Part shown: one piece after another, positions 1 through 36,585 of the stretch
Numbering within the stretch: the stretch's first letter is position 1
Layout of the letters: every line of letters begins with the position of its first letter
Source: a virus
Lineage: Duplodnaviria; Heunggongvirae; Uroviricota; Caudoviricetes
Length of the DNA stretch: 36,585 nt
Virus record (IMG/VR): IMGVR_UViG_2778261448_000005
Direction: 5' to 3' (one strand)
The notes under the pieces: generated by a model
The model's input: only the letters and a program-made list of their open reading frames with translations
What the model was told of the DNA's origin: nothing
Database searches by the model: none
Translations under genes and position numbers: made by a program

Positions 1-1020
1 TTAATCCCCCGTGGACACTGCGTGGACACTCACGCCACCTTTCAGCGGATTAAGGGCCACCGCATCCTGCAGGTAATCCGATGCAAAATGTGCATATGCC
101 ATTGTTTGCTGAATGGTTGCGTGGCCAAGAATCTTCTGAAGCGCAATAATGTTTCCTCCGTTCATCACAAAATGGCTGGCGAACGTATGCCGCAGCACAT
201 GTGCAGCCTGGCCTTTTGGCAAATCGGGCTTAACTCTTTTCAGCGCCAAGCAGAATTCCCGGTACTTCACCTCAAACAAGCCGCCTGTTTCTCTGGTTTT
301 GATCGCCTCACAAACTGCCTGCGAAATTGGCACTGTTCTCTTTCGGCCATTTTTGGTTTCAAGAAACGTTACACGGTTATGAACTATCTGTTCACCACGA
401 AGCTTACAGGCTTCACTCCAGCGCGCCCCCGTGCTTAAACACAAAAGCGCAACACGCCAGTAATCGCCCTCCAGTGTATCGAGCAATAACGCCACTTCCT
501 TCTGGGACAGGAAAGCCATTTCTCGTGGAGATACATAAAGAATAGAAATTCCCCTTACCGGATGTTCTGCATCCCAGAGGCCTATTTTCTTCAGTACGGT
601 AAACATTCCGGATAACCGATTCATGTATCTGTTAGCAGATGACGGTTTCAATCCATCAGCTATCTTTTGAGAACGCCACGCGATAATTTTTAGCTTATCA
701 AGATCCACAGCCTGCATATCAGCGCCAAGCTCATTGATTATGTTGCGCAGTTGTTTTCGGTCTTCTTCCGCCTTACGCCTGTGCTGGCCGTGATACATCC
801 ACCACAACTCAAGCAAATCATTTAGCGTTCGACGATCACGGTAGCCCTGTATATATTCCCGCTTTTCAGCGTTCGCCATGATGTAGCGTTCAGTGGCCAC
901 CGCTACCGATTTTTTGTCAAATACCTTACGCACGCGCTTTCCCTTGCGTCCGTTCGGCCTGATGTCCAGCAAATAACGACCATCTTCGAGCTTCTTAATC
1001 GACATTGCGAAGCCCTCCAA
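1..1020 (-). CDS. int: tyrosine integrase
   Basis: 339-aa ORF. C-terminal region carries the tyrosine-recombinase catalytic box (HVLRHTFASH ... MAYAHF). Sits at the prophage edge next to the repressor, as in P2. Confidence 0.9.
   Translation of the reverse strand: MEGFAMSIKKLEDGRYLLDIRPNGRKGKRVRKVFDKKSVAVATERYIMANAEKREYIQGYRDRRTLNDLLELWWMYHGQHRRKAEEDRKQLRNIINELGADMQAVDLDKLKIIAWRSQKIADGLKPSSANRYMNRLSGMFTVLKKIGLWDAEHPVRGISILYVSPREMAFLSQKEVALLLDTLEGDYWRVALLCLSTGARWSEACKLRGEQIVHNRVTFLETKNGRKRTVPISQAVCEAIKTRETGGLFEVKYREFCLALKRVKPDLPKGQAAHVLRHTFASHFVMNGGNIIALQKILGHATIQQTMAYAHFASDYLQDAVALNPLKGGVSVHAVSTGD
11..29. repeat. candidate attL core, direct repeat of 35405-35423
   Basis: GTGGaCACTGCGTGGACAC here versus GTGGtCACTGCGTGGACAC at 35405-35423 (14-bp exact core, 19 bp with one mismatch). 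Lies within the last codons of int. Confidence 0.4.
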
Positions 1021-1101
1021 TGAACCGCTCTACAATTTCTCCAGCCTCTTTCCAGCAATAATCAGACCAGACAAAAAGCAGGTCTAACCAGTTTTCTGGC
1101 C

Positions 1102-1476
1102 TCAGCGGGATAATTTTTGGATTGTTTCGGTTGAAACACGATCTCCCTCCGAATTGCAGGAACCATCAAGAGAGAGAGCCGGAGAAATTTGCCCAACCTC
1201 CGGCATCGTTTCATCTGTTGATAACCAATAAGCATATTTCTTAAATTTAGGGTGTTTCGTAACCTTAAGTAAGGCACCCTCTGTTACTTGCTTCCCCCTC
1301 ACCTCATAGTTAGTTACCGTCCCATAAGGCAGCCCAACACAATCCGCAAACTCCTGGCGGGTCATACCTTCTGCTTCACGAATCAGGCGAAATTTTTCAC
1401 CCATGCTTGACAAAGATGCCATATCGGGCATATCCCCCATCGCAACATGCCACATCGGGCACAAACATAAAAACAC
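1102..1476 (-). CDS. immunity repressor, C-type with Cro/CI-like HTH; true start probably an internal Met near 1422-1440
   Basis: HTH-like segment MTRQEFADCVGLPYGTVTNYE. Divergent from the cox-like gene and adjacent to int, matching the P2 C position. Confidence 0.75.
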   Translation of the reverse strand: MFLCLCPMWHVAMGDMPDMASLSSMGEKFRLIREAEGMTRQEFADCVGLPYGTVTNYEVRGKQVTEGALLKVTKHPKFKKYAYWLSTDETMPEVGQISPALSLDGSCNSEGDRVSTETIQKLSR

Positions 1477-1480
1477 TCAA

Positions 1481-1510
1481 ATAAGCCGATATAAGCCATT
1501 TTGAGCCATT
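1481..1510. promoter_or_regulatory. phased direct repeats in the C/cox switch region, candidate operators
   Basis: Three ~10-bp tandem units ATAAGCCGAT / ATAAGCCATT / TTGAGCCATT between the divergent repressor and cox-like genes. Confidence 0.35.
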
Positions 1511-1535
1511 CGAACGAATTAGGGAGATTACCACA

Positions 1536-1823
1536 ATGAGCGAATCAGAGCTTGGGGGCTTCATTCAGGTAGCACCATATCCACTTGAAGCGGTGCCATA
1601 TCAACTATTCGCCAAGATGATCGGCCGCAAGGAATCCACAGTCAGAACCATGATTGACGCAGCAAAGCTACCGACAATTGACTTTGTGAAACCAGGTTCA
1701 GTAAAGACGCGTGCATCAGAAAACTGGGTATATCTGCCAGCATTTAACGAAGGCATGCGCAAAGCGTTTTTTGAGCAACCGAAAGAACGCCGCGATGCAT
1801 GGTTGTTGTGGCTGGGGCTTTAG
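1536..1823 (+). CDS. cox: Cox/Apl-like excisionase and switch regulator
   Basis: 95-aa ORF, first gene of the rightward early operon, divergent from the repressor. AGGGAG RBS upstream. Call rests on position and size. Confidence 0.65.
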   Translation: MSESELGGFIQVAPYPLEAVPYQLFAKMIGRKESTVRTMIDAAKLPTIDFVKPGSVKTRASENWVYLPAFNEGMRKAFFEQPKERRDAWLLWLGL

Positions 1824-1829
1824 TCATAA

Positions 1830-2036
1830 ATGACCAGCCATATCATCAGCGCCATTCTGACCCTTGTTTTTATTGAGATAGGCGTAATAGCGATCTATTT
1901 GTTTCGTAAGTTAACGGGACATGAAGAACGCTTTATTGAACTCAGCATTGAATATATCGCCGCTTATACCAAAGGGCTTTTCCCGGCAGCTATTGGGGCG
2001 ATGTTTATAGCGTTTGTTATCTGGTTTATCGGGTGA
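1830..2036 (+). CDS. small membrane protein, two predicted TM helices
   Basis: 68-aa hydrophobic ORF directly after cox. Confidence 0.4.
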   Translation: MTSHIISAILTLVFIEIGVIAIYLFRKLTGHEERFIELSIEYIAAYTKGLFPAAIGAMFIAFVIWFIG

Positions 2037-2075
2037 GAAACCTGATAAACCACAACTACTGCAATGAGGGTAATT

Positions 2076-2183
2076 ATGTGTGGCATGGACAAATTGGACC
2101 TTATGTTAATTGTAATACTATCAATTAACTTCGGTTACCTCTTAAGCGGCGTAATTCTCATGTGCGGAGGCAAACGAAAATGA
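2076..2183 (+). CDS. small hydrophobic peptide, 35 aa
   Basis: ATG preceded by GAGGG. Translation MCGMDKLDLMLIVILSINFGYLLSGVILMCGGKRK. Stop overlaps the next start (ATGA). Confidence 0.3.
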   Translation: MCGMDKLDLMLIVILSINFGYLLSGVILMCGGKRK

Positions 2184-2287
2184 ACCAGCAGTCCGCACAA
2201 CGTGAAAACAATGCGATGCGATTTAATCGCAAATATTTTGAGTTCGGCCGCTATGCCGGAATAATTAAATCTGTACAGAGTCTTTAA
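2180..2287 (+). CDS. small basic peptide, 35 aa
   Basis: Translationally coupled to the flanking ORFs (ATGA overlap upstream, TAA-ATG downstream). Confidence 0.3.
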   Translation: MNQQSAQRENNAMRFNRKYFEFGRYAGIIKSVQSL

Positions 2288-2288
2288 C

Positions 2289-2630
2289 ATGAAACAGCAA
2301 CGTAATTCACGCTTTCGTAATGGTGCTGAACGTCACGCTAATCGTTTCGCTACCAGTGCATCACGCAGCAACATCCGCTACAGCCTGAGTGATACACACG
2401 CAACGCCGGATGGCTACCCAGTAAAACAAATCGGCGAGCATGCCTGGCTGATTGAGAAAGCTGGAATCGTGGTCCACAAATGCCCACGCAACCCGTTTAC
2501 TGGAAACCGCATTTTTGCTCTAAGCAGCGGCGAAAATCAGTTCGGGCAGGATTTCACATTATACGAAGCACTACGCACGGTTGATCGTCTGCTTCGCGGA
2601 CAAAGTTTTATTAAACAGGCTGATTTATAA
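2289..2630 (+). CDS. hypothetical early-region protein
   Basis: 113-aa ORF in the early operon, no recognisable motif. Confidence 0.4.
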   Translation: MKQQRNSRFRNGAERHANRFATSASRSNIRYSLSDTHATPDGYPVKQIGEHAWLIEKAGIVVHKCPRNPFTGNRIFALSSGENQFGQDFTLYEALRTVDRLLRGQSFIKQADL

Positions 2631-2640
2631 CAGGTGCTTT

Positions 2641-2928
2641 ATGACCAAAGACCATGCACAAGGTGTATTTATCCGTTTTATTGATTTTCGCGGTGAACTG
2701 TTATTACGCGCATCCGCTATTGATGGAGTGGCTCCGGCGGGTAAAAACGGAGCCGACGAAGCCACTTACGTTTATCTGAACGGCACGCGACTGCTTGTGG
2801 AACTTCCGTACCAGACCGTACGAGAAATCATTAGCAAAGCTGAAAAAGCGCGCCAGGCTAATGGCAATGAACCCTATATCGAAATTATTTGCATGGATTC
2901 AGAAGCTGAAATTCAGAAAGCAGATTAA
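2641..2928 (+). CDS. hypothetical early-region protein
   Basis: ORF-track frame 2581-2928, start moved to the ATG at 2641 (MTKDHAQ...). Confidence 0.4.
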   Translation: MTKDHAQGVFIRFIDFRGELLLRASAIDGVAPAGKNGADEATYVYLNGTRLLVELPYQTVREIISKAEKARQANGNEPYIEIICMDSEAEIQKAD

Positions 2929-2939
2929 AGGGTGTTGCA

Positions 2940-3182
2940 ATGGGCAAAGAATATAAAACACTCATCAACAAAGCACTTGAGCGTTTTTATTTTCGCTTAA
3001 GTGCATCAGGCTCTCATGCTGAACGTGCAGCCCGTGACTCATTGACCAGGGCAATCCGGAGTCTGTATGACGTGGCTTTTTACGCTGATGATCTGGATGC
3101 ACTTAACGAACTTTCCGAGCTAATCTGTGCCGCAGAATGCGGGGAACATATTGAACCGTATAAGCTGGGGAATATCGCATGA
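2940..3182 (+). CDS. hypothetical early-region protein
   Basis: 80-aa ORF. Confidence 0.4.
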   Translation: MGKEYKTLINKALERFYFRLSASGSHAERAARDSLTRAIRSLYDVAFYADDLDALNELSELICAAECGEHIEPYKLGNIA

Positions 3183-3292
3183 GTATATTTATCTCATGGC
3201 TTGTTCTGATTATTTCTGTGGCCTGCGCCATTGGGATTATGCGAATTATTCATTCAGTAAAAAAGATTGAACGCTTTTTCACTGGCGAATAA
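3179..3292 (+). CDS. small single-TM peptide, 37 aa
   Basis: ATGA overlap with the preceding ORF. Translation MSIFISWLVLIISVACAIGIMRIIHSVKKIERFFTGE. Confidence 0.3.
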   Translation: MSIFISWLVLIISVACAIGIMRIIHSVKKIERFFTGE

Positions 3293-3378
3293 CAGAGCAA
3301 ATAAAACCACAGGTTAAATAAGAAAATGTAAAAACAATCCGCATTCGCGGAGGTATTCGCATACGCCAAGGAGGCGTA

Positions 3379-9008: not shown

Positions 9009-9012
9009 ACCA

Positions 9013-9327
9013 ATGACGACACCAACCAGACGGATAAGTTTCTATCTGAAGCCCGCCGCCGTCAAGAGTGAACAGGAGGCGTGCAATTACCTCGATAGCC
9101 TACCAGCCTCCGAACGCAGCCGCGCGCAACGCGCGGCCTTTCTGGCTGGGCTAGCGCTCATAAAGCGCAACCCAGCATTTGCCTACTGGATGGCCGAATG
9201 GCCAGAGGACAACCTCCCCTTCAATACCGTTAGCATCAAGGAAACATACCAGGATAATCAGCCTAGCGGAGTTGAATGCAATTTTTATAGAATAAAAAAG
9301 AATATTCAGACCTTATTCCCAGAATAA
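9013..9327 (+). CDS. parR: ParR-like centromere-binding adaptor
   Basis: 104 aa immediately downstream of parM. N-terminal segment (RRISFYLKP ... LDSLPASERSRAQRAAFLAGLAL) resembles R1 ParR. GGAG RBS 7 nt upstream. Confidence 0.7.
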   Translation: MTTPTRRISFYLKPAAVKSEQEACNYLDSLPASERSRAQRAAFLAGLALIKRNPAFAYWMAEWPEDNLPFNTVSIKETYQDNQPSGVECNFYRIKKNIQTLFPE

Positions 9328-14236: not shown

Positions 14237-14390
14237 TGCTCCCCCTGAGTAATTACAGGAAGATTACCCGCGCGCGAAACTGTTCTCCTTAACCCCCTGT
14301 TCTGGCCGTTTTCTTACAACAAAAGCCCTTTGTATCAGCCTGTTACGCTTTGCCATCATGACTGAAGAACCAGTCAGAGGGGCAAAAACT

Positions 14391-15227
14391 ATGGCTAATG
14401 AAAAAAAGACATCCCGCAAAAAGTTTCGCGTGGCTGTCTCCGGATCAACTGTTGATGGCCGTGAAATCAGTCCGGTGCATCTGCGTGAAGCCGCCGAGAA
14501 CTTCAACCCGGATGTTTACGCTGCCCGCGTGAACGTTGAGCACTATCTCTCGCCATGCCCGTCAAGCGAATTTTCCGCAATGGGCGATGTCACCGCACTG
14601 AGTACGGAAGACATTACGGAAGGTCCGCTGGCCGGACGTACTGCGCTGTATGCAGAAATCGAACCGACAGAGCGCATGAAGCAGCTTGTCGCGGACGGCA
14701 AGAAAATCTATTCCAGTATCGAACTGCACCCGCAGTTCTCCGTTAACGGGCGCGCCTATCTGGTCGGGCTGGCGATGACCGACACCCCGGCAAGCCTGGG
14801 CACTGAGCGCCTGAAATTCACGGCACAGCAACGTCAGGCGGTAATGACGTTCAACAGTGTCCAGGGTGAAGCGCCGCTTATCTCCGAAGCCATCGAGTCT
14901 GAAATCATCGAAATGGCAGAACAACGCCAGGAAGAAGGCACCCAGTGGTTTAACCGCGTAATGGGGATTATTGGCCGTGGCCGCAAAGCGGATGACGCCA
15001 GTTTTTCCCGTATTCAGGAAGCGGTGGAAGGCGTCGCAACGTCACAGGCCGACATTATCGACCGTTTTAATGTGCTGGAAACCCGCCATCAGCAGGACCG
15101 CCAGAAAATTACGTCACTGATCACAGAGCTGACAGCACTGAAGGAAAAACTGCGCACGCAGGACGGCGATCCGCAGAACCGGTTCACCGCAACGGGCGCA
15201 GCCTCCGACCAGATGGCTGACTTCTGA
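14391..15227 (+). CDS. O: capsid scaffolding protein, P2 gpO family
   Basis: ORF-track frame 14358-15227, start set to the ATG at 14391 with GAGGGG RBS. Size and position match gpO. Confidence 0.85.
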   Translation: MANEKKTSRKKFRVAVSGSTVDGREISPVHLREAAENFNPDVYAARVNVEHYLSPCPSSEFSAMGDVTALSTEDITEGPLAGRTALYAEIEPTERMKQLVADGKKIYSSIELHPQFSVNGRAYLVGLAMTDTPASLGTERLKFTAQQRQAVMTFNSVQGEAPLISEAIESEIIEMAEQRQEEGTQWFNRVMGIIGRGRKADDASFSRIQEAVEGVATSQADIIDRFNVLETRHQQDRQKITSLITELTALKEKLRTQDGDPQNRFTATGAASDQMADF

Positions 15228-15250
15228 TAAGACAAAGGAGCAAATTTTTT

Positions 15251-16303
15251 ATGAATCTGGTGATGTCAGATATTACCCGCAACAAGCTGGGTTGCTATAT
15301 GGCGCAGCAGGCGTCGCTTAATAATATCCCGGTTTCTGCGCTGGTATCGCGATTTACCGTAGAACCCTCGGTGCAGCAGCGTTTTGAAAACGCCTCAAAG
15401 GAAAGCACCGAATTTACAAAAAGAATTAACGTGATCGGCGTAACCGACCAGAAAGGCGAAAAAATCCTCCCGGATACCACAGGACCGATTGCGCGCACGA
15501 ATACCAGTTATGACGGCACAAAACGCCGTAACCCGAATAACGTGGTTGATCTGAAAAACCGCAAATACCAGTGCGAACAGGTGAACTACGACACGTTTAT
15601 TTCATATCCGCAGCTTGATGCCTGGGCGGCACATCCTGATTTTCAGTCCCGCATCAGCGCACAGATTGCCCGACAGGTGGCGCTTGACCGCATCATGATC
15701 GGTTTCAACGGCACGTCTCACGCGGATGAGTCCAACTTCAGCACCAACAAGCTGCTTCAGGACGTTAACGTGGGCTGGCTGGAGCACATCAGAACCGACG
15801 CCAGCGAGCGCGTTATGAATGACGTGACGCTGACCTCCCGCAACATGGACAACACCGTGGCGCACGCGGGTAAGTATGCGAACGCTGATGCACTGGTACA
15901 GGACGCACGCTCATCCCTGCTGGATGAATGGCACAAGGAAGCTGACGACCTCGTGGTGATTATGGGGCGCAACCTGTTTAACTCGCTGCGTCTTCCCGTG
16001 CTGAACAGCATCAGCGGCCAGAATCCCAATGCGGAATTACTTGCCGGGCAGCTCATCCTGTCATCGCGCACCATTGGCGGGCTGGGCGTGTTCCTTGCGC
16101 CGTTCTTCCCGGATGCAACGATGCTGATCACCTCGTTCAACAACCTGTCGATTTACTGGCAGAAAGGTTCAATGCGTCGTCTGATGAAAGACGAACCGGA
16201 ATACAACCGCATCGCCACCTACCAGTCCATCAATGACGCTTATGTCGTTGAAGACTATGGCAAGTGCGCGATGGTCACTGGCCTGAAGTTCGCCGACAGC
16301 TAA
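15251..16303 (+). CDS. N: major capsid protein, P2 gpN family
   Basis: 350 aa (P2 gpN about 357 aa), AAGGAG RBS, directly after the scaffold gene. Confidence 0.9.
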   Translation: MNLVMSDITRNKLGCYMAQQASLNNIPVSALVSRFTVEPSVQQRFENASKESTEFTKRINVIGVTDQKGEKILPDTTGPIARTNTSYDGTKRRNPNNVVDLKNRKYQCEQVNYDTFISYPQLDAWAAHPDFQSRISAQIARQVALDRIMIGFNGTSHADESNFSTNKLLQDVNVGWLEHIRTDASERVMNDVTLTSRNMDNTVAHAGKYANADALVQDARSSLLDEWHKEADDLVVIMGRNLFNSLRLPVLNSISGQNPNAELLAGQLILSSRTIGGLGVFLAPFFPDATMLITSFNNLSIYWQKGSMRRLMKDEPEYNRIATYQSINDAYVVEDYGKCAMVTGLKFADS

Positions 16304-16348
16304 TCAACTCACGGCGGGCATCATGCCCGCCTGTAACGGAGAGAAAAA

Positions 16349-17149
16349 ATGATTACTCCTGCACAGCAACACTGGCAGAACGTGATGGCACAGCGCGCAG
16401 GCCGGGCGAATGAAGGCGTGGACCACGCCGCGCGTACCGCGCATGAAGAGGTGCTGTATCGTCTGCGTCTGGCACAGGCCCGGCTTAAGGGCGTACAGGC
16501 CAGAAGCGCGAAAGCCGCCATCAAAAAAGAGTTGTTGCCGGACTTTTCCGGCTGGATTGAGGGAACGCTGGAGGCTGACGGTGGGCAGCAGGATGAAGTG
16601 ATTGCCACGCTGATGGTGTGGGCGATTGACTGCGGCGATCTTCCGCTGGCGCTGCGTATTGGTGCATATGTGGTCCGTCACAACCTCATCATGCCGGATA
16701 ACTTTGGCCGTACTGCTGCCACAGTGCTGACCGAAGAAATCTGCAATCCGGTACTGACGCAGGCCGGGACGGATGCCGACGCGGATTTGTCCGCCTTTAT
16801 CGAACCTCTGGACACCCTCCGGGAGATTGTCACCGACCAGGACATGCCGGACGAAGTGCGCGCCAAATTATGCAAGGCGTGTGCCTTTGCCCGTCGTGGC
16901 CTGACCGATGCAGACAGCATGGCCCTGTCACTGAAGCTGCTGCGCGAAGCGATGCACCTGAACCCGAACGCAGGTGTGAAACGCGAGATTGCAACCCTTT
17001 CCCGCGCCCTGAAAAAAGCCGATTCCGCAGCCGCACCAGAAGACGCCAGCGCACAGCAGGCGCAGGACGAAAGCAGCAAAAGTAAAAAGACAACGCGGAA
17101 GCCTGCAACACGAAAAACCACCGCGACGCAGAAGGCGAAGCGCGGTTAA
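16349..17149 (+). CDS. M: terminase small (endonuclease) subunit, P2 gpM family
   Basis: 266 aa, GGAGAG RBS, position after N. Confidence 0.85.
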   Translation: MITPAQQHWQNVMAQRAGRANEGVDHAARTAHEEVLYRLRLAQARLKGVQARSAKAAIKKELLPDFSGWIEGTLEADGGQQDEVIATLMVWAIDCGDLPLALRIGAYVVRHNLIMPDNFGRTAATVLTEEICNPVLTQAGTDADADLSAFIEPLDTLREIVTDQDMPDEVRAKLCKACAFARRGLTDADSMALSLKLLREAMHLNPNAGVKREIATLSRALKKADSAAAPEDASAQQAQDESSKSKKTTRKPATRKTTATQKAKRG

Positions 17150-17251
17150 CGACTGACCCCGTCAGCGGGCGGCGTGCGCGGTGTTCCGGTTTGACTCCGT
17201 GACCGTTTACACCGCGCACCCACCGCCCGATTTTTTTCAGGAGTGAACCCC

Positions 17252-17746
17252 ATGAGTATGGTTGCCAGAAACAACCCCGGACCCGCAGAGGACGACATCA
17301 CCGATACCGATGATGGTGATACCCGTATTTCAGCGGGCGCATTCTGGCCGGATATTGTGCTGCGTGAGCTGCGTCTGGCGATACGACTGCCGGGCCGTGT
17401 GACCACCTCCCGCCTGCTGCATACCGCCACCGGGGCCGTGGCACACGTTACCCGCGAGCTGGAAGCGTGGCAGCAGGAACAGCAGGCGGCTGGCCATCAG
17501 ACGCTGGCCGATGTTCCGGCACCCGTAATTAACGGAGAAAGCGTCAATCTCTGGCACTGGCGCAATGCTGTTTATACCGCCACACGCGCCCTGATTCTGG
17601 AGCGTTACCGCGATGCGGACACAACGGACAAGGGCGACCGCCGGGCGGACGCACTGGATATACAGACATCGGATTTGTGGCGTGATGTGAGCTGGGCCAT
17701 CTCTGACATTCTGTGCCGCCCACGAATCTTTGCGGAGTTGTGCTGA
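17252..17746 (+). CDS. L: head completion protein, P2 gpL family
   Basis: ORF-track frame 17243-17746, start set to the ATG at 17252 after an AGGAGTG RBS. About 164 aa. Confidence 0.8.
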   Translation: MSMVARNNPGPAEDDITDTDDGDTRISAGAFWPDIVLRELRLAIRLPGRVTTSRLLHTATGAVAHVTRELEAWQQEQQAAGHQTLADVPAPVINGESVNLWHWRNAVYTATRALILERYRDADTTDKGDRRADALDIQTSDLWRDVSWAISDILCRPRIFAELC

Positions 17747-17946
17747 TGAAAGTAAAGGCACTGGAAGACGACACCGTGGATTCGCTCTGTTTCCGGTACT
17801 ACGGCACGACGCAGGGCGTCACCGAAAAGGTGCTGGATGCCAACCCCGGACTCTGTCAGCAGGTATTTCTGGACGCAGGGCAGGAAGTGGAGATGCCGGA
17901 GCCGGAGAAGAAGAAACGAGAAATGATTCAGTTGTGGGGGGAGTAG
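17746..17946 (+). CDS. X: tail protein X, P2 gpX family
   Basis: 66 aa from the ATG overlapping the L stop. MKVKALEDDTVDSLCFRYYG ... ANPGL parallels P2 gpX as I recall it. Confidence 0.8.
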   Translation: MKVKALEDDTVDSLCFRYYGTTQGVTEKVLDANPGLCQQVFLDAGQEVEMPEPEKKKREMIQLWGE

Positions 17947-22648: not shown

Positions 22649-24991
22649 ATGAGTACCACAACACGAAAATTTAAAACCGTTATCACCGATACGGGTGCAA
22701 AAAAATTAGCTCAGGCAGCCGCGCCAGATGGTAAGCCTGTCCGCCTGACTCATATGGCCGTGGGCGACGGTGGCGGCACGTTGCCCACACCAGACAGCAA
22801 GCAGACCCGTCTGGTGCATGAGGTGTGGCGACACACTGTTAATCGCGTCATCCTGGACGCAACACATCAGAACCGCATTATTGCGGAGCTGGTTATTCCT
22901 CCAGAAACGGGCGGATTCTGGATCCGGGAAATTGGTGTGTTTGATGAGCACGGCGATTTAATCGCGGTGGGCAATACTGCCGAAAGTTACAAGCCAGCCG
23001 TTGCCGAAGGGTCCGGTCGTGCACAAACATTTCGCACCATTCTGACCGTATCCAGCACTGCCACTGTGGCGCTTACCGTGGATAACACCATGGTGATGGC
23101 CACAGTGGATTACGTGGATAACAAACTGAAAGAGCATGAACAGTCACGACGTCACCCGGATGCCTCGCTGACCGCAAAAGGCTTTGTTCAACTCAGTAGC
23201 GCCACTAACAGCGATTCTGAAACGCTGGCTGCAACGCCGAAAGCGGTTAAGGTCGCGTATGATCTTGCTAACGGAAAATATACAGCGCAGGATGCCACAA
23301 CAGCGCGAAAAGGCCTTGTCCAGCTTAGTAGTGCAACCAACAGCACATCTGAAACGCTTGCCGCGACACCGAAGGCAGTTAAAGCAGCGAATGACAATGC
23401 GAATGGCAGGGTACCATCTAACCGAAAAGTTAACGGGAAAGCACTGACTGCGGATATAACATTAACACCGAAAGATATTGGCACTTTAAATTCAGTAACG
23501 ATCTCTTTCTCTGGCGGGGCAGGGTGGTTCAAACTGGCAACGGTTACCATGCCACAAGCGAGTTCCATCGTTTACATCGCATTGATTGGTGGCACTGGTT
23601 ACAACGTCGGCTCCCCACAGCAGGCAGGCATTTCAGAACTGGTTCTACGAGCAGGCAATGGAAACCCCAAAGGGATTACCGGAGCTTTGTGGAAGCGTAC
23701 AGCCGTCGGATTAACGAATTTCGCCTGGATCAACACATCCGGCGATACATATGATATTTACGTTGAGATTGGCAATTATGCGACGAGTGTAAATATCCAT
23801 TGGGATTGTACTACAAATGCGTCAGTTTCTATTTATACCTCGCCAACATATTCAGCGAGTAAGCCTTCCAGCGTTACCGGTGGTGTTGTTTATACGATGT
23901 ATAGCTCACATCAGAAACCTACACCATCAGATATTGGAGCGCTGCCAACGACTGGAGGGACTATTTCAGGTCCGTTGTCTGTTACTGATGGGATCACCGG
24001 GGCACTGAAGGGGAACGCCGATACCGCGACGAAACTTGCGGCAGCCCCAAAAATTAACGGTGTTAAGTTTGATGGCTCGGCGGATATTAACCTCACGCCG
24101 GAAAATATTGGTGCATTTGCCCGACGTTCGACGGGGGCTTATGCGGATTCGAATGGAGCCGTTCCCTGGAATGCCGAATCAGGCGCTTATAATGTCACCC
24201 GCTCTGGCGACAGCTATATTCTGGTTAACTTCTATACCGGAGTCGGAAGTTGCCGGACCTTGCAGATGAAGGCGCATTACAGAAATGGTGGTCTGTTCTA
24301 CCGTTCTTCAAGAGACGGTTATGGTTTTGAGGAAGACTGGGCAGAAGTTTATACCTCGAAAAATCTTCCACCAGAAAGCTACCCAGTCGGCGCACCAATC
24401 CCGTGGCCATCAGATACCGTTCCGTCTGGTTATGCCCTGATGCAGGGGCAGACTTTTGACAAATCTGCATACCCGAAACTTGCAGTCGCTTATCCGTCAG
24501 GCGTGATCCCTGATATGCGTGGCTGGACTATCAAGGGCAAACCTGCCAGTGGTCGTGCCGTATTGTCTCAGGAACAGGACGGCATTAAATCGCACACCCA
24601 CAGCGCCAGCGCATCCAGTACTGATTTGGGGACGAAAACCACATCGTCGTTTGATTACGGTACTAAAACGACCAGTTCATTTGATTACGGCACAAAAACC
24701 ACAAATAGCGCAGGAGCTCATTCACACAATATACCTGTTGGTCACACTGGCGCGGGGAATGGTGTATCAGCCGGTTATAACGCTGCGTTAGGTACTGGTA
24801 CCACGTCGAGCGCAGGAGGGCATGCTCACAATGTATATATCGGTGCCCATAACCACACTATCGGCATTGGTGCTCATGCCCATTCTGTCATTATTGGTCC
24901 CCACGGACACACCATCACCGTTAATGCTACGGGGAACGCAGAAAACACCGTAAAAAACATCGCATTTAACTATATTGTGAGGCTTGCATAA
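22649..24991 (+). CDS. H: tail fibre protein H
   Basis: 780 aa. Conserved P2-H-like N-terminus, internal tail-fibre repeats ([18 protein letters not shown] twice), His-rich GxHxH C-terminal repeats. Confidence 0.85.
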
Positions 24992-25612: not shown

Positions 25613-26218
25613 CTATTTATACAATACAACACCGCTCTTTTTAGTTATATATGTGCAGTTCGATGGTATATCTTTATTTATAAAAGACATTGCACCTATT
25701 TTTACATTATCCCCAATTTTACGTGATAATCCAATGATGCAACAATTAGCTCCGATATCAACGTTACTACCAATTTTTACTCTTGAACCAGGCATGTCAC
25801 CATCTATCTGTCCAATGGTAGTATTCTGTCGTAACACCAGATTTTCACCAGCATCAACAGCAAAATGAACAACAATTCCAGCATGATGGGGAATTGTTAA
25901 CCCTTTTCCAATATTTGCTCCCAATCCTATTTCACAACCAAATTTGTTAATTATTTTACTGTTTAACTTCTTGGCTGCTTTCTTATGTAATTTATTACCA
26001 TTAATATACATTTCGTTAGCCAACCGCCACCAGAAAAGGAAATTCCTGTTACGCTGCTTTTTCTCTCTTAAAAGCCTCCAGATATCCATACGTTTCCGCC
26101 GAATTACTTCATGTTTCCAGAAGTTTTTTAAATTAGTAGAGTTCCCAAATAAAACAAAGTGAATTGCCATTAGGTAAGACAGCACGATAATCTCCTTAAT
26201 TATTATTTCAGACCACAC
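25613..26218 (-). CDS. hexapeptide-repeat (left-handed beta-helix) acetyltransferase, AT-rich cargo; start uncertain (26218 or 26170)
   Basis: Hexapeptide repeats visible (VKIGSNVDIGAN, IGDNVKIGAMSFI, IGANCCIIG). Low GC. Sits at the Z/fun position between G and the tail genes. Confidence 0.7.
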   Translation of the reverse strand: MWSEIIIKEIIVLSYLMAIHFVLFGNSTNLKNFWKHEVIRRKRMDIWRLLREKKQRNRNFLFWWRLANEMYINGNKLHKKAAKKLNSKIINKFGCEIGLGANIGKGLTIPHHAGIVVHFAVDAGENLVLRQNTTIGQIDGDMPGSRVKIGSNVDIGANCCIIGLSRKIGDNVKIGAMSFINKDIPSNCTYITKKSGVVLYK

Positions 26219-26341: not shown

Positions 26342-26836
26342 TCAGAGCAGCCCCTTAACTGAGCTGGCCGCGCTATTAAGGGATGATGTCACCTTATCTT
26401 TGAAGCCGGACAACATATCGCTGAACGATGAGGATTGCAGGCGCTCCCGCAAATCCTCATCACAGCGTTCAAGAGTCAGTGAAAATTCTATCTTTTTCGC
26501 CTTACCGTAGCGATCAAACTCGGAACGGGTCGTATTCGTTCCGGTCAGGACATACATGCCGTAAATCTGCCCGACGCCATCAATCAAAGGCCAAGGTCGT
26601 CCTGTATACGCCTGCGTGGTCAGCAGCGACAGCGACACTTCGCCACCTGTAATTTCAGGATAAAGCACACCAGAAAGAACGATGCGATCATCACCTGCAC
26701 CGATATACTGCCAGCTTGCTGAACGGTTAACGCGTTCATTTTTCACATGCCGCCAGCTTTTGTTTTGCTGTAACTGCTGATGCGGCAGCGTGCGCAGCTC
26801 AAAAACAAACATGCCATAGATCATCATCATGGCCAT
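26342..26836 (-). CDS. U: tail protein U, P2 gpU family
   Basis: 164 aa (P2 gpU about 159 aa). Characteristic MMM..FVF.LRT N-terminus. Downstream of the tape measure. Confidence 0.85.
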   Translation of the reverse strand: MAMMMIYGMFVFELRTLPHQQLQQNKSWRHVKNERVNRSASWQYIGAGDDRIVLSGVLYPEITGGEVSLSLLTTQAYTGRPWPLIDGVGQIYGMYVLTGTNTTRSEFDRYGKAKKIEFSLTLERCDEDLRERLQSSSFSDMLSGFKDKVTSSLNSAASSVKGLL

Positions 26837-26842
26837 GACTCC

Positions 26843-29659
26843 TCAATCTTTATCGTAAAAACTGCCACGCCCGGCACGGGCGCGCCGTTCCATTTCTGCC
26901 CTGACCATTTCACCGACCAGTTTCGCCAGTTCGCGGGGATTCTGCGTAACAACGTTATGCAGATGAACATGAATTTCACCACCAAATCCGGAGACAACAG
27001 GCTCCCGGTTACGGGAAGTTGCAGGAACTGATGCCACTGGCGATCGTATGGCCTCCGCCACCGGACGGGAGCTGGCCGCAACAACAGGGACCAGCGCCGG
27101 AGGCAGAGGAGCCGGGACTACGGGTGTGATGTTGATTGCGGAAGCAGGCTTACTGGCCTGCGCAATCTTCCGCTCCTGCCACTCCCCACGAACGGCAAGT
27201 GCGCGGGGCAGATTCTTAAAGACAATATCACCGGGGCCAATGCGTTTTTTCGTCTCATCAACCAGCTTACCTGTGTTATCAGCAATTTTGCTGAGTCTGC
27301 GTAGCGTACCGGTATTGCTGTCTGTGAGTGGTTTGTCGTCTTTGGGTTTATCACCTCCGGTGCCATTGCCATTTTCCACAGGCTTCGGCGGATTGATTTT
27401 CGCCAGGTCCCCCTGAAGCAAGGCAACCTTGTCCTGAAGAATGGCCGCACGCTGTGCGTCTTCAATTTTCTTGCGCGCCCTTTCCGCTTCATCCGGAAGG
27501 ACGCCAAGTTTTTCAAGTATCCACGCCAGCGTATCCAGTAGCATTTTTGCAGGTGTCAGAACAAGCTGTAACGCACCGCCAAGAACGTTACCGAATATCT
27601 CGCCAGCACTGGTACATTTATCCAGCGTTTCCTTACTGGACTCCATCGGTGACAGCAGCGATTTAAACCAGTTAAACACCTAGCTGATCCCGCTTCCGAT
27701 TGCGTCAAAAAAAGGGCCAAACCGTTCAAAGGTTTCGCGTAACGGAGCCAGCCGTTCCATAATCCCACTGAACACCCCTGCATAAAACGCCTTGATGGGT
27801 TCCCAGTATTTCCAGATGAGAACCGCCGCAGCCACAAACGTAGCAGCAATCAATCCGACCGGACTGAACAGCGCCCCGATAGCGCCTCCCAGTAACGAAA
27901 TGGAACCCGTCACCATTCCCCATAATGCAGGCAGAACCCTGACAACATTCAATGATCCGGTCAGGAGGGAAAAACCAAGACGCAGTTTTGCCAGTGGGCC
28001 AGCAAGCACACCAATAGCCAGCGACAACGAGCCTATGGTTGCAGTCATTGCCAGCAGAGCACCGCCTGCAACCAGTAGCTGGCGCGTCAGTGCCGGATGG
28101 GCCTGCGCCAGCGCCGTCACCTTCGATACCACCCGCGTGAGCCACTGCGTGACAGAACGCAGCGGACCGTCAATCAGATCTGCAATGCGGATGCGCAACC
28201 CTTCCCATGCACTGCCGAGTGATTTCAGATCGCCGTCAAGGTTGTTGGCCATAACCTTTGCTGTGCGTTCAGCCTCACCGCGCGCGCCTTCAAGTTCTTT
28301 TCTCAGTTTGGGTAAGGAGCCGTCACCTGCCGCATCAACGAGGGCCATAAATGATGTGAAAGCCTCTTCTCCGGCAATGTCCTTAAAGAACGATACCCGG
28401 TCAACTTCCCCGTATTTGCGGGTAGCTTTATAAAGGTCAGCCAGCACATCCTCCATCGGGCGCATTTTGCCGTTCGCGTCAGAAACAGCCACACCAAGCT
28501 CCTTCAGCGCCTCTGCTGCCGCCTTTGGCGGTGATGCCAGACGAGCCAGGCTGGCACGCATTGCCGTCCCGGCATCACTCCCTCTGATACCCATATTCGC
28601 CAACACGCCAGCCATCGCTGCGGCCTGCTCCAGCGATATTCCCAGCTTACCCGCCACCGGACCTGCATATTTCATGGTTTCGCCCAGTGCGCGAAGGTCA
28701 GTGTTGGTACGGGTAAATGCTGCGGTGAGCGTGTCGCCAACCCGGTCCATCTGGTCAGCAGAAAGGCCGAACTGCGTCAGGATATTTGAGCCAATATCCG
28801 CCGTCTCGCCGAGATCCATGCCGCCAGCCGTTGCCATGCTCAGCACGCCCGGAAGTGCAGCCTGAATGGCCTGCGGAGTGAAGCCAGCCATTGCAAGAAA
28901 TGCCTGCCCACTGGCGGCATCGCCTGCGGTGAACTGCGTTTCAGAGCCAAGTTTTAACGCCTGCTCACGCAGTGCCTTAAACTGCGGGCTGTTTTTGTCG
29001 ATTCGCGTCAGTGCCTGAACGCGGGACATCTCTTTGCCGAACCCGATCGCAGGCTGCAAAAAACGCCCGGCAGCATAGCCGCCCGCCGCTGCCGCACCAA
29101 TTGCCAGCGCACCACCTGTTTTCAGTTTTCCCGCTGTTTCCTGCGCGCGCGAATACCGCTCACGCGCCCGCGTTACACGCGCAAGCGCCTGCCGTTCGCG
29201 TTCAAGCTGGTTGTTGTACTGTTCGGTGCGTCTGATGGCCTGCTGGATGGTGTTATCGCTGCCTGTCAGGGAAATGCCGTGGCGTTTCAGCTCTCCGCCA
29301 AGCTCCCGCATTTTCTGAATTTCCCGTGTGCGCGATTCATTCAGGCGTTCAAGCCGGGTGCTTAACTGCTGCATCAGCTTTTGTTGTTTTTCGCTGAGCA
29401 CTGTACCCGTGCGTTGTAACTGATTAAGGGCGTTAAGCTGGCGTCGTGCTTTCACGATGCCAGCATCCGCTTTACTGACAGCGTCACGGGCGCGCTCAAA
29501 TGAACGCGCCTGACGCTCGAGATTTTTGATCGCCCCCTGCGTTCGCTGGATGGAGTCACCAAACTGCCCCATCAGGCGGCGGGCGTTTTCGGCAGGCCGG
29601 GTCAGCCTGTCAACGGCGCTGAAAGCGACCCGGATATCAAGAGTCTTCATTATCTGCAT
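26843..29659 (-). pseudogene. T: tail tape measure protein gpT, interrupted by a single in-frame TAG at 27680-27682
   Basis: ORFs 27680-29659 (659 aa) and 26843-27679 (278 aa) are contiguous and in the same frame across one amber codon, about 938 codons combined. Ala/Gly-rich coiled-coil-like composition typical of tape measures. Confidence 0.7.
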
Positions 29660-29903
29660 TCCCGCTGCGAAGTGCCGCCCGCTCGCGCCAGCTAACCACT
29701 TCGCCGGGCGTCATCATGAAGATTTCGGCGGGCGACCAGTTAAAAATGGCGGCAATATCCGCCACCAGATCTTCGATGTGCTCAAAGCACACCAGGGTGA
29801 TTACGCTGCCGTCTCCTGCACGCTCTTCGCGCCAGAGTCTGGCTCGCTCATAAAATTTACAGCCACAGCGCACAACTGAATAAAATCGCGTGACGACATT
29901 TTT
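29637..29903 (-). CDS. E-prime extension, minus-one frame product of the tail chaperone (E+E-prime fusion by programmed frameshift)
   Basis: The -1 frame is open from the A7 run at 29899-29905 (minus strand) to a stop at 29637 and overlaps the T start, as in P2 E/E+E-prime and lambda G/GT. Confidence 0.45.
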   Translation of the reverse strand, partial: KNVVTRFYSVVRCGCKFYERARLWREERAGDGSVITLVCFEHIEDLVADIAAIFNWSPAEIFMMTPGEVVSWRERAALRSGNADNEDS

Positions 29904-30175
29904 TTAATCATCACTTCATCCAGTCGTGGCGAGGTCACGCGAGGCAACAGCGTAAACATGGTATCCGCTTTCAGATTCAGCACATCAGACAGCGACAGAC
30001 CACGCAGGGATCCAGCCTGCTCAATAGCCCCGGTGATCTCCACATACGTGATTTTTTCGCCACCACGCTCAATTGGTCGGGTCAGTTTTACGCCACGTTC
30101 GACAGCCATATCCTCACCTGCCGTCACATCATCCGCCACGGTGTTATTCCGGGTTTCAGTATCGATGTCTTTCAT
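29801..30175 (-). CDS. E: tail assembly chaperone E, P2 gpE family
   Basis: Small ORF between the tube and tape measure genes, AAGGAGA RBS. An alternative internal start at 30109 also has an RBS. Confidence 0.7.
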   Translation of the reverse strand: MKDIDTETRNNTVADDVTAGEDMAVERGVKLTRPIERGGEKITYVEITGAIEQAGSLRGLSLSDVLNLKADTMFTLLPRVTSPRLDEVMIKKMSSRDFIQLCAVAVNFMSEPDSGAKSVQETAA

Positions 30176-32084: not shown

Positions 32085-33194
32085 ATGACCGACACCACCA
32101 TGCAATTGCTCAGTCAGGGCACAGACCCCGTGAAAATGCCGGATTTTGATATTCTCGCGGAGGGTAAAACGCTGTCAGGCGTGGCAGAGCGCCTGATGAG
32201 CCTGTCACTGACCGACAACCGGGGATTTGAGGCGGACCAGCTCACCATCACGCTGGATGATGCGGATGGTCAGTTGCAGCTACCGCCACGGGGCGCGCGC
32301 CTGACGGTTCTCATTGGCTGGAAAGGAGAACCGCTGACAGAAAAAGGCACTTACATTGTTGATGAAATCGCTCACGAAGGACCGCCGGACAGGCTGACTG
32401 TTTCAGCCAGAAGCGCAGATTTTCGGGATGAATTTAACGTTAAACGTGAGGTGTCCTGGCATGATGTGACCGTTGAGCGTGTGGTATCCGCCATCGCTCA
32501 TCGGTATGGTCTGAAACCACAAATCAGCGAAATGCTGATGGATATCGAAATCGACCACGCCGACCAGACCGAAGAAAGCGACATGTCCTTCCTTACGCGC
32601 ATGGCGGAAATGCTGGGCGCAATCACCACGGTAAAAAGCGGCAATCTGTTATTCATCATGCCAGGTGGTGGCGTGAACGCACAGGGCCAGCCGTTGCCCT
32701 CGTTCGCCATTACACGCAGCAGCGGCGATCGCCATCAGTTCCGTATTGCTGACCGCGAGGCGTATACGGGGGTACGCGCCTACTGGCTTGATCTTAATTA
32801 CGGGGAAAAGAAAAAAGTCAGCGTGAAACGCCGCAAACCACCAAAACCCCAAAAGGAGAAAAGCAGCAGCCGTGAAGGTGATTATATGGAAGGCGCGGAA
32901 GGCAATGTGTTTGTGTTACGCAAGACCTATCAGAACGAACAGGCAGCAAGACGCGCAGCGGCGGCAAAGTGGCAGCAACTACAACGCGGAGCCGCATCAT
33001 TCTCCATCACGCTGGCGCGTGGACGTGCAGAACTCTACCCCGAAATGCATGGTACGGTAACAGGATTTAAAAGCGAGATTGATAATCAGGACTGGATCAT
33101 TGCAAAAGCCGAGCACACTATTGATAACAGCGGCTTTACCACGCAGCTTGAGCTTGAGGCAAAAATCCCGGAATGGATAGCGGAAACAGAGTGA
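32085..33194 (+). CDS. D: tail protein D (late control D family); start uncertain
   Basis: ORF-track frame 31953-33194, likely start at the internal Met (MTDTTMQ) near 32085. About 369 aa versus P2 gpD 387 aa. Directly upstream of ogr. Confidence 0.8.
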   Translation: MTDTTMQLLSQGTDPVKMPDFDILAEGKTLSGVAERLMSLSLTDNRGFEADQLTITLDDADGQLQLPPRGARLTVLIGWKGEPLTEKGTYIVDEIAHEGPPDRLTVSARSADFRDEFNVKREVSWHDVTVERVVSAIAHRYGLKPQISEMLMDIEIDHADQTEESDMSFLTRMAEMLGAITTVKSGNLLFIMPGGGVNAQGQPLPSFAITRSSGDRHQFRIADREAYTGVRAYWLDLNYGEKKKVSVKRRKPPKPQKEKSSSREGDYMEGAEGNVFVLRKTYQNEQAARRAAAAKWQQLQRGAASFSITLARGRAELYPEMHGTVTGFKSEIDNQDWIIAKAEHTIDNSGFTTQLELEAKIPEWIAETE

Positions 33195-33687: not shown

Positions 33688-33828
33688 ATGTCGCAAAAAT
33701 CGCTTACGGCCATCACGTTCTGCGTGACGGTAATCCTCATCATCTGGATGCTGCACGGTTCGCTGTGTGAAATACGGATGAGCTTCTGGGGAGCGGAGTT
33801 TGCGGCGTTCTTACAGTGTAAGCAGTAA
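33688..33828 (+). CDS. Hok/Gef-family type I toxin, 46 aa
   Basis: Not in the ORF track (under 60 aa). Translation MSQKSLTAITFCVTVILIIWMLHGSLCEIRMSFWGAEFAAFLQCKQ: N-terminal TM helix plus the conserved SLCEIR and AAF blocks. AAGGAG RBS upstream. Confidence 0.55.
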   Translation: MSQKSLTAITFCVTVILIIWMLHGSLCEIRMSFWGAEFAAFLQCKQ

Positions 33829-34090: not shown

Positions 34091-34423
34091 ATGGCATTAA
34101 TCAAATGTCCTGAATGCCAGAAAGAGGTGAGCGATTCAGCATTGTATTGCCCTGCTTGTGGTAAACAACTGCAAAAACTTAAGCGTTCATTTTTTGGACG
34201 GATCATTAAGTGGGTTTTTATATTATTTAATATTTTTATGATCTATACGCTTTTAGTTGGACTAGGAGGCACTAGTGAAATAATAAATAATGCCACATCC
34301 GATGCCGAAAAAGCCGGTGCAGTTATTGGTACAGGCTTAGGTTTAATTACCATTGGAAGCTTATGGGTTATTGGCGATATCATTATCGGAATTTTAGTAT
34401 TTCTTACTAAACCAAAGGGATAA
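34091..34423 (+). CDS. zinc-ribbon membrane protein, AT-rich cargo
   Basis: N-terminal CPECQ ... CPACG zinc ribbon followed by two hydrophobic helices. GGAGG RBS. Low GC. Confidence 0.5.
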   Translation: MALIKCPECQKEVSDSALYCPACGKQLQKLKRSFFGRIIKWVFILFNIFMIYTLLVGLGGTSEIINNATSDAEKAGAVIGTGLGLITIGSLWVIGDIIIGILVFLTKPKG

Positions 34424-34427
34424 TAAA

Positions 34428-35321
34428 ATGAAAAATATAATTTTTTCTATAGGTGCATCATTTATATCAATTAGTGTACTGCCTGTTCAAGCAGCAACTG
34501 AACATAAGAACTTCAATGCAGTACTCCAGTGCCGAGCAATAGAAAATAATAAAGACAGACTTTCTTGTTACGATAAGTCAATACAACCGACTCGAACGAA
34601 AGTTGCTGAAAAATTCGAAAGCAGAGATCAATGCCCTGATGAGAAAGATGATGATAGACGTTTATCTTGTTATGATCGTTTCTTTTCTCCAACATTTACT
34701 CCATCTGTAAACTCAAAATCTAAAACGGAAAAGCCAGTAACAACAGAGGCTCAGCAACCAAATCTTTCTGAGATATCTAAATGTCGTGCAGAAAATGATA
34801 AAGAAGCCAGACTAAACTGCTACGATAAACTATTCCCACAGGATAAAATCGCTCAAGCTGAATCAAAATTAGAGAAAGCCACAGATGTAGGAAAATGGCA
34901 CACATCCATTACTACATCGCCAATTGATGATTCGAAAAATGTAATTTTATCGTTAGAAAGTGATGATTATATCAGAACTCCATTTGGAGAAGCGGTTACT
35001 CCTACTCTTTTTATAGCTTGCCGAGAAAAGAAAACCGAAGTATTTCTTAGTTGGGATGTATATTTAGGCCTTGAACAAACCAGCATGCTTTATCGCCTTG
35101 ATAAACAGAAAGCAGTTGAGCGAAACTGGCTAGTATCTACAGATACAAAGGCTGTTTTTTATAAAGGTAATGACATTGATTTCATCCGAAAACTAGCCAA
35201 CTCAAGCAAAATGTATACAAAAATAACGCCTTATAATGAGAGCCCCGTAAGTGCAACTTTCAATTTAAACGGCCTGTCAAACGCGCTAAAACCGCTTCAA
35301 GCTGCTTGTAACTGGAAATAG
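34428..35321 (+). CDS. secreted protein with three Cys-x(n)-RLSCYD repeats, AT-rich cargo
   Basis: Signal peptide (MKNIIFSIGASFISISVLPVQA). Three repeats (CRAIENNKDRLSCYDK, CPDEKDDDRRLSCYDR, CRAENDKEARLNCYDK), then a roughly 150-aa C-terminal domain. Low GC. Confidence 0.5.
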   Translation: MKNIIFSIGASFISISVLPVQAATEHKNFNAVLQCRAIENNKDRLSCYDKSIQPTRTKVAEKFESRDQCPDEKDDDRRLSCYDRFFSPTFTPSVNSKSKTEKPVTTEAQQPNLSEISKCRAENDKEARLNCYDKLFPQDKIAQAESKLEKATDVGKWHTSITTSPIDDSKNVILSLESDDYIRTPFGEAVTPTLFIACREKKTEVFLSWDVYLGLEQTSMLYRLDKQKAVERNWLVSTDTKAVFYKGNDIDFIRKLANSSKMYTKITPYNESPVSATFNLNGLSNALKPLQAACNWK

Positions 35322-35589: not shown

Positions 35590-36585
35590 ATGATACAACC
35601 TATTTCCGGCCCTCCTCCTGGGCAACCACCAGGTCAGGGAGATAACCTGCCGTCTGGCGCGGGCAATCAGCCTTTATCCAGTCAGCAACGTACTTCGCTG
35701 GAAAGCTTAATGACGAAAGTGACCTCACTGACGCAACAGCAAAGAGCAGAACTGTGGGCGGGTATCAGGCACGATATTGGTCTGTCGGGAGATTCACCGC
35801 TGCTTTCGCGTCACTTCCCTGCCGCTGAGCATAATCTGGCGCAACGTCTGCTGGCCGCGCAAAAAAGCCATTCTGCCCGCCAGCTTTTAGCGCAATTAGG
35901 GGAGTATTTACGTCTGGGGAATAATCGTCAGGCGGTCACGGATTATATCCGTCATAACTTTGGTCAGACGCCGCTGAATCAGCTCTCACCGGAGCAATTA
36001 AAAACCATTCTCACCCTGTTGCAGGAAGGGAAGATGGTTATTCCGCAACCACAGCAGCGCGAGGCGACCGACCGTCCTTTATTACCGGCGGAGCACAATG
36101 CGCTAAAACAGCTGGTGACCAAACTTGCGGCGGCAACGGGGGAACCCAGCAAACAGATCTGGCAATCGATGCTGGAACTTTCCGGGGCGAAAGATGGCGA
36201 GTTAATTCCAGCGAAACTGTTTAACCATCTGGTGACCTGGCTACAGGCGCGTCAGACGCTAAGCCAGCAAAATACGCCGACGCTGGAATCACTACAGATG
36301 ACGCTAAAACAACCTTTAGATGCCAGTGAACTGGCGGCGTTATCGGCATATATCCAGCAAAAATATGGTCTTTCTGCGCAATCATCGCTTTCTTCTGCCC
36401 AGGCCGAGGATATTCTTAATCAGCTTTATCAACGGCGGGTTAAAGGGATTGATCCGCGTGTTATGCAACCGCTGCTTAATCCTTTTCCACCGATGATGGA
36501 CACGTTGCAAAATATGGCAACGCGTCCCGCGCTGTGGATACTGTTAGTCGCGATTATCCTGATGCTGGTCTGGCTGGTTCGTTAA
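35590..36585 (+). CDS. flk: flagellar regulator Flk-like protein, host chromosome
   Basis: 331 aa with a Pro/Gly/Gln-rich N-terminus (MIQPISGPPPGQPPGQGD) and a single C-terminal membrane anchor (ALWILLVAIILMLVWLVR), the architecture I recall for enterobacterial Flk. GC and codon usage differ from the AT-rich cargo. Confidence 0.6.
   Translation: MIQPISGPPPGQPPGQGDNLPSGAGNQPLSSQQRTSLESLMTKVTSLTQQQRAELWAGIRHDIGLSGDSPLLSRHFPAAEHNLAQRLLAAQKSHSARQLLAQLGEYLRLGNNRQAVTDYIRHNFGQTPLNQLSPEQLKTILTLLQEGKMVIPQPQQREATDRPLLPAEHNALKQLVTKLAAATGEPSKQIWQSMLELSGAKDGELIPAKLFNHLVTWLQARQTLSQQNTPTLESLQMTLKQPLDASELAALSAYIQQKYGLSAQSSLSSAQAEDILNQLYQRRVKGIDPRVMQPLLNPFPPMMDTLQNMATRPALWILLVAIILMLVWLVR

Follow-up and report, generated by a model that had tools for sequence, protein, structure and literature searches.

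The window, by which we mean the whole 36,585-nt stretch of DNA analysed here, contains a P2-like prophage of the P88 group (Xuanwuvirus, Peduoviridae) in an Escherichia coli chromosome. The prophage lies between the pdxB side and flk: its integrase gene (1..1020, minus strand) bounds it at one end and the host's flk (35590..36585) at the other. Its tail genes follow the order sheath-tube-E-E'-T-U, as they do in P88 and in RefSeq annotations. E and E' lie directly upstream of T, with E' overlapping the start of T, and gpU lies directly downstream.

At the T position there are two minus-strand open reading frames, 29659..27680 (659 aa) and 27679..26843 (278 aa). The open reading frame listing, the sequence and its translation confirmed the starting observation of the first-pass annotation that the two abut, share one frame and have a single TAG between them; this codon, at 27682..27680, is the sole separator. 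The GTG that serves as the "start" of the second frame (27679..27677) is the codon right after the TAG and corresponds to Val658 in intact homologues (..ISQVFNWF..). It is preceded by a weak purine-rich GGGA 8 nt upstream. Judged by its frame and its alignment to homologues, the 278-codon C-terminal frame is not an independent gene. The joined length had been put at about 938 codons. We corrected this to 935, since RefSeq (PGAP) and phage records start the homologues at the ATG corresponding to position 29650, three codons downstream of 29659. The restored gene thus comprises 656 + 1 + 278 = 935 codons followed by the natural TGA stop. From the sequence, the 656-codon fragment is the only product expected without suppression. 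The features of the locus are collected in Table 1.

Table 1. Features at the interrupted T locus, with positions given in the window.
Feature	Position	Strand	Evidence and remarks
Complete gpT (tail tape measure) frame	26843..29650	-	935 codons, broken at codon 657; tblastn of P88 gpT
Premature amber codon TAG, codon 657 (CAG/Gln in relatives)	27680..27682	-	Sequence and alignments
Mutated Dcm site, CTAGG vs CCAGG in all compared relatives	27679..27683	-	Changed base 27682 is the inner C, Dcm's methylation position
N-terminal 656-codon fragment with PhageMin_Tail domain and hydrophobic segment	27683..29650	-	Pfam PF10145
C-terminal 278 codons, downstream of the stop	26843..27679	-	Colinear with P88 gpT residues 658-935
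gpE (30175..29801) and E' (29792..29640), tail assembly chaperone genes	29640..30175	-	Full-length P88 homologues; PF06528 Phage_P2_GpE in the 51-aa product
gpU, tail protein, intact	26342..26836	-	99.4% identity to P88 gpU over 164 aa; PF06995

Several other features of the prophage are worth recording. Of the two chaperone genes on the minus strand, gpE is in the 0 frame and E' in the -1 frame. The open -1 frame (ORF 29873..29637) includes a slippery-type heptamer, A_AAT_TTT, at 29858..29852 (zero-frame codons GTA AAT TTT), which may be where the P2-type E/E+E' tail-chaperone frameshift takes place. A minus-strand gene at 25613-26218, flanked by gpU and the tail-fibre assembly gene, is called "serine acetyltransferase" by PGAP in the sister prophage; the corresponding place in P88 is occupied by a DNA invertase and by alternative, invertible tail-fibre genes. 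The gene may be a cargo gene. As in P88, genes for ParM and a partition protein (8049-9327) adjoin the replication endonuclease gene, so that an integrated P2-like prophage holds segregation genes of the plasmid type. The right end has a hok/gef toxin gene (33688..33825). Two genes follow, within or just beyond attR: 34091..34423 encodes a zinc-ribbon protein, and 34428..35321, the last before the host flk, a VasI/TagO-like "type VI secretion-associated" protein.

Alignment of P88 gpT (YP_009113088.1, Xuanwuvirus P88) with the joined frame by tblastn covered residues 1-935 without a gap, at 97.0% identity and with one stop. An end-to-end alignment with a single stop argues that the juxtaposition of the two frames is not due to chance. 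Residues 228-427 match the Pfam family PF10145 (PhageMin_Tail) with E = 1.2e-58 and a score of 198.7 bits (cut-off 33.2); the C-terminal 278 residues gave no Pfam match. P88 and the window have this domain in common, and also the neighbors sheath, tube, E, E', T, U and D of the P2 FI-FII-E-E'-T-U-D tail operon. In E. coli CRE1540 and CP66-6, RefSeq (PGAP) calls the equivalent interval one "phage tail tape measure protein". Colinearity with P88 gpT, the PF10145 match and gene order thus agree with the earlier proposal of a P2-like tape measure gene split by one in-frame amber codon. P88 itself is an inducible phage, obtained from E. coli K88, that makes plaques and whose burst size has been measured, so gpT is functional in its intact form of 935 residues. 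At codon 657 this viable plaque-former has CAG, whereas the window has TAG there and so lacks the uninterrupted reading frame of a functional tape measure gene. By homology and gene order, the gene is a member of the P2/P88 gpT tape measure family, present here as a predicted pseudogene.

The first-pass annotation had proposed that comparison with homologues would reveal what the TAG replaces, with CAG or TGG as examples. This comparison showed that TAG stands for CAG: codon 657 is CAG (Gln) in the alignments with P88, Citrobacter phage Shae_phiSM, E. coli CRE1540 and CP66-6. The T genes of the seven closest complete E. coli genomes are the same as that of the window save for that one base in 2,817 nt, and in CP66-6 the TAG base is the only difference inside the gene. 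It had also been considered that the tape measure of homologues might genuinely end at this position. Instead, the phage and E. coli records compared have one annotated gene of approximately 935 codons, and of the 13,557 members of the protein cluster at 90% identity, 15 are listed, most of them 935 aa long. Some phage records give two product names in this region and could be taken for a conserved split T gene; we rejected this because in P88 and 500465-2, the records inspected, the second name belongs to the overlapping E' gene. The only truly split T gene seen was that of phage 520873, where there is a frameshift at another position.

We searched complete E. coli genomes with a 101-nt query centred on the stop and obtained 1,171 records at ≥80% coverage. 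The TAG was present in 0 among the approximately 1,170 genomes with the region, the best identity being 99.0% over the 101 nt. Searches for the TAG allele by exact 40-mer, and by 26-mer with one N, found none in IMG/VR, GTDB representative genomes or JGI metagenomes, and the same pattern with CAG matched at least 120 IMG/VR contigs. None of the phage records compared has TAG (CAG was confirmed for P88 and Shae_phiSM). The presence of CAG in all relatives compared and the lack of TAG in these collections indicate that the stop is derived and private.

The closest prophage, that of E. coli CP66-6, has 139 differences from the window. About 115 of these are in the terminase-scaffold-capsid-L region (12700-17900), and 8 further differences are in the tail-fibre gene (23500-23850). 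From the clustering of the differences, these two regions look like recombination patches in a near-identical prophage. Among the differences is a run of seven T residues (T7) in the window versus a T6 run in CP66-6 at 17231-17237. This run bears on a further IMG/VR record, IMGVR_UViG_2909272501_000003, which in the 1,416 bp compared departs from the window only in having CAG at the amber position. The record is missing from the complete match list for the T7 allele of the window. This makes a sister prophage of the CP66-6 type, probably with the T6 run, the likelier reading of the record.

The exact 656-aa product and the 278-aa frame are on record only in GCA_002518045.1 and in the separately built Logan assembly of SRR3993852. 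In the former, a 6,837-nt piece of contig NOCY01000001.1 (557 kb) is an exact substring of the window, which places the origin of the window in that genome or one identical to it. In the latter, a 16-kb contig has the whole T gene at 100% identity to the window, TAG included, and also has the window's diagnostic SNPs in flk. A literature search on the GCA_002518045.1 and SRR3993852 accessions found nothing. Two pipelines giving one base appears to rule out an assembler artefact; the read set may be common to both, so the agreement would not be an independent biological replication. Accurate short reads presumably lie behind the Logan contig, because this 16-kb k-mer contig agrees fully with the NCBI sequence in every part where they were compared.

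The sequence around codon 657 suggests how the stop arose. In relatives, the codons AGC-CAG-GTG contain a CCAGG Dcm site; the window has CTAGG, a C-to-T change at the inner C. Enumeration of all single-base changes in the restored gene yielded 248 possible nonsense substitutions at 223 positions, of which 60 are transitions. The gene contains three CCWGG sites, and deamination of 5-methylcytosine (5mC) could create a stop only at the site in codon 657. The observed C-to-T change is thus one of the 248 nonsense substitutions and one of the 60 nonsense transitions, and it stands alone among them in being at a predicted Dcm 5mC position. The dcm gene is common in E. coli. In lacI, the classical amber hotspots among spontaneous mutations consist of the same change, the second C of CCAGG to T, which converts an in-frame CAG to TAG (Coulondre, Miller, Farabaugh and Gilbert 1978, reviewed in PMC12606429). 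The lacI data are a measured mutation spectrum, whereas the window holds a single natural event in a prophage gene in which methylation of the site is assumed. That the sole nonsense-capable Dcm site was hit, and that the change belongs to the lacI hotspot class, supports a genuine spontaneous mutation; this argument is post hoc in that the site was seen first, though the hotspot class was defined long before. We propose that the ancestral codon 657 was CAG within a CCAGG Dcm site and that spontaneous deamination of the 5-methylated inner C would have produced a T:G mismatch. The T:G mismatches that arise from 5mC deamination are a substrate of Vsr very-short-patch repair; this one would have escaped repair and been fixed as CTAGG, giving TAG. 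Dcm methylation is presumably the cause of the change, with Dcm activity in this strain assumed.

These results also bear on whether the base is real. If the TAG were a sequencing or base-calling error, the true genome would have CAG. The window differs by this single base from seven otherwise identical T genes, one read set might lie behind both assemblies with TAG, and some long-read base callers err systematically at Dcm motifs, all of which would suit an error. Against this, two assembly pipelines agree, with the T gene 100% identical between them, the short reads that we infer do not miscall 5mC, and the change is exactly the one predicted by a 5mC deamination hotspot. The presence of TAG in a second assembly and its position at a known mutational hotspot therefore make a sequencing or assembly error, one of the three readings offered by the first-pass annotation, unlikely; we regard it as improbable, though it is the best placed of the alternatives. 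A nonsense-inactivated gene is the best supported of those three readings.

We compared 32 P88 proteins with the window, and all 32 have counterparts. A stop falls in the match to gpT only, and the other 31 matches are stop-free. The late and structural genes are full length, mostly with 96-100% identity to P88. These include the genes for the portal, both terminase subunits, the scaffold, the capsid, L, X and the lysis proteins, as well as R, S, V, W, J, I, U, E', the tube, the sheath and D. The product of gpE has a 75% match to that of P88, and the matches to the tail-fibre genes H and G are partial. Outside the 12.7-17.9 kb and tail-fibre patches, there is only a handful of scattered differences between the window and its nearest sister prophage. 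The small number of scattered differences and the intact state of the other late genes suggest that the lesion is recent and, as far as can be told from sequence, the sole inactivating one. The earlier description of a "defective prophage" is an extrapolation from one lesion, every other late gene being intact.

The annotation of gpD in sister genomes deserves comment. In the window, gpD (32085-33194) is a full-length open reading frame of 369 aa with PF05954, and is 98.6% identical to P88 gpD. RefSeq (PGAP) annotates gpD in sister genomes as an 801-nt gene and a partial pseudogene on the other strand. We considered that this short gpD might mean that the sister lineage was already defective and rejected the idea because of the full-length frame and its identity to P88 gpD. 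The short PGAP gpD looks like an annotation quirk and not a lesion.

The ratio pN/pS versus P88 was 0.05 for the C-terminal 278 codons of T and 0.14 for the N-terminal part. By the value of 0.05, the C-terminal 278 codons that are lost are a constrained part of the protein under strong purifying selection. Without a suppressor, translation would end after residue 656 and the conserved C-terminal 278 residues would be absent. By analogy with other tape measures, loss of the C-terminus would be expected to abolish tail assembly, since the truncated protein would give it no support. Upon induction, heads would be made and the cell lysed, with few or no infective particles coming out. The prophage is thus likely to have become tail-defective recently. 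Taken together, we consider it highly probable that the window carries a recent, strain-private nonsense mutation at a Dcm hotspot in gpT of a P88-like prophage of the GCA_002518045.1 strain, with a predicted loss of tail assembly. Some residual function could come from low-level read-through of UAG by tRNA-Gln, which would insert the native residue, from re-initiation at the GTG, or from a host suppressor.

The last of these routes would lead to a different reading of the prophage, also raised by the first-pass annotation, in which it is a conditional sus-type phage and an amber-suppressor tRNA of the host (for example, supE-like glnV/glnX) yields full-length gpT and a phage that is viable in that host. 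Amber suppressors have been reported in natural coliform isolates. Since TAG replaces CAG, a Gln-inserting suppressor would restore the exact wild-type protein, and the intact state of all other late genes is in keeping with this. On the other hand, suppressor alleles are rare in wild E. coli, and no tRNA gene was found when a suppressor tRNA was sought within the window. Moreover, as the allele is confined to a single strain or clone, a mutation that is recent and either neutral or deleterious is a better fit than an adapted state. We judge this reading to be quite unlikely. We hold the same small expectation for its broader form, in which either a natural suppressor host or sufficiently high near-cognate tRNA-Gln read-through of UAG-G would make the prophage conditionally infectious. 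If this were true, the window would hold a natural example of a temperate phage of the sus type, and its transmission would depend on the translational fidelity of its host.

It is slightly less likely still that the gene works in its present form, either in two pieces, with re-initiation at the GTG and co-assembly of the two polypeptides, or with the 656-residue fragment acting as a shorter ruler that gives shorter tails. The GTG abuts the stop and has the weak GGGA upstream, as re-initiation would call for, and tail length in phage lambda scales with the length of the tape measure, which would suit a truncated ruler. However, none of the relatives is organised in this way, the split T of phage 520873 being a frameshift elsewhere, and the C-terminal part is under strong constraint as a segment of a single chain. 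The analogy with lambda gpH also speaks against a truncated ruler, in that the length changes known to be tolerated there are internal in-frame deletions and not losses of the C-terminus. Finally, programmed read-through of the stop to give two tape measure isoforms has nothing in its favor beyond the in-frame geometry and is for all practical purposes excluded by the lack of conservation of the stop, which is in no homologue examined (phages, approximately 1,170 E. coli genomes, IMG/VR, GTDB representatives, JGI metagenomes), the cluster members listed being mostly 935 aa.

A private nonsense mutation in gpT has known counterparts. Laboratory amber (sus) mutants exist in phage tail genes, as in the late-gene collections of P2 and lambda. 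In these too, an essential morphogenetic gene contains one UAG and the genome is otherwise intact. They were selected on a suppressor host, whereas the allele in the window was found in the genome assembly of an isolate. A second counterpart is found among decaying prophages whose tape measure gene is disrupted, such as Escherichia phage 520873 (NC_049344.1), which belongs to the same phage group and in which T is likewise two coding sequences (510..1655 and 1703..3316). There, 1 nt is deleted at another position (the match spans 2,816 nt versus 2,817), whereas the lesion in the window is an amber codon. The fact that T of phage 520873 is split by a separate lesion suggests that lesions in this long gene are not unusual. 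The record of this phage (NC_049344.1 510-3316) carries the species name Xuanwuvirus xv520873. The window allele thus resembles laboratory sus mutants and ordinary prophage decay, both already known, and is nothing new in kind.

For annotation, the two open reading frames should be described as one tape measure pseudogene, or as one gene with an internal stop, and not as two genes, and this strain's prophage should be recorded as probably tail-defective, however complete it looks. The finding has little importance beyond annotation; its added value is that the mutation hit the one stop-capable, presumably Dcm-methylated cytosine of the gene. It provides a probable natural example of the textbook CAG-to-TAG hotspot at a Dcm site acting on a prophage gene and illustrates that a seemingly intact prophage can be one base from non-viability.
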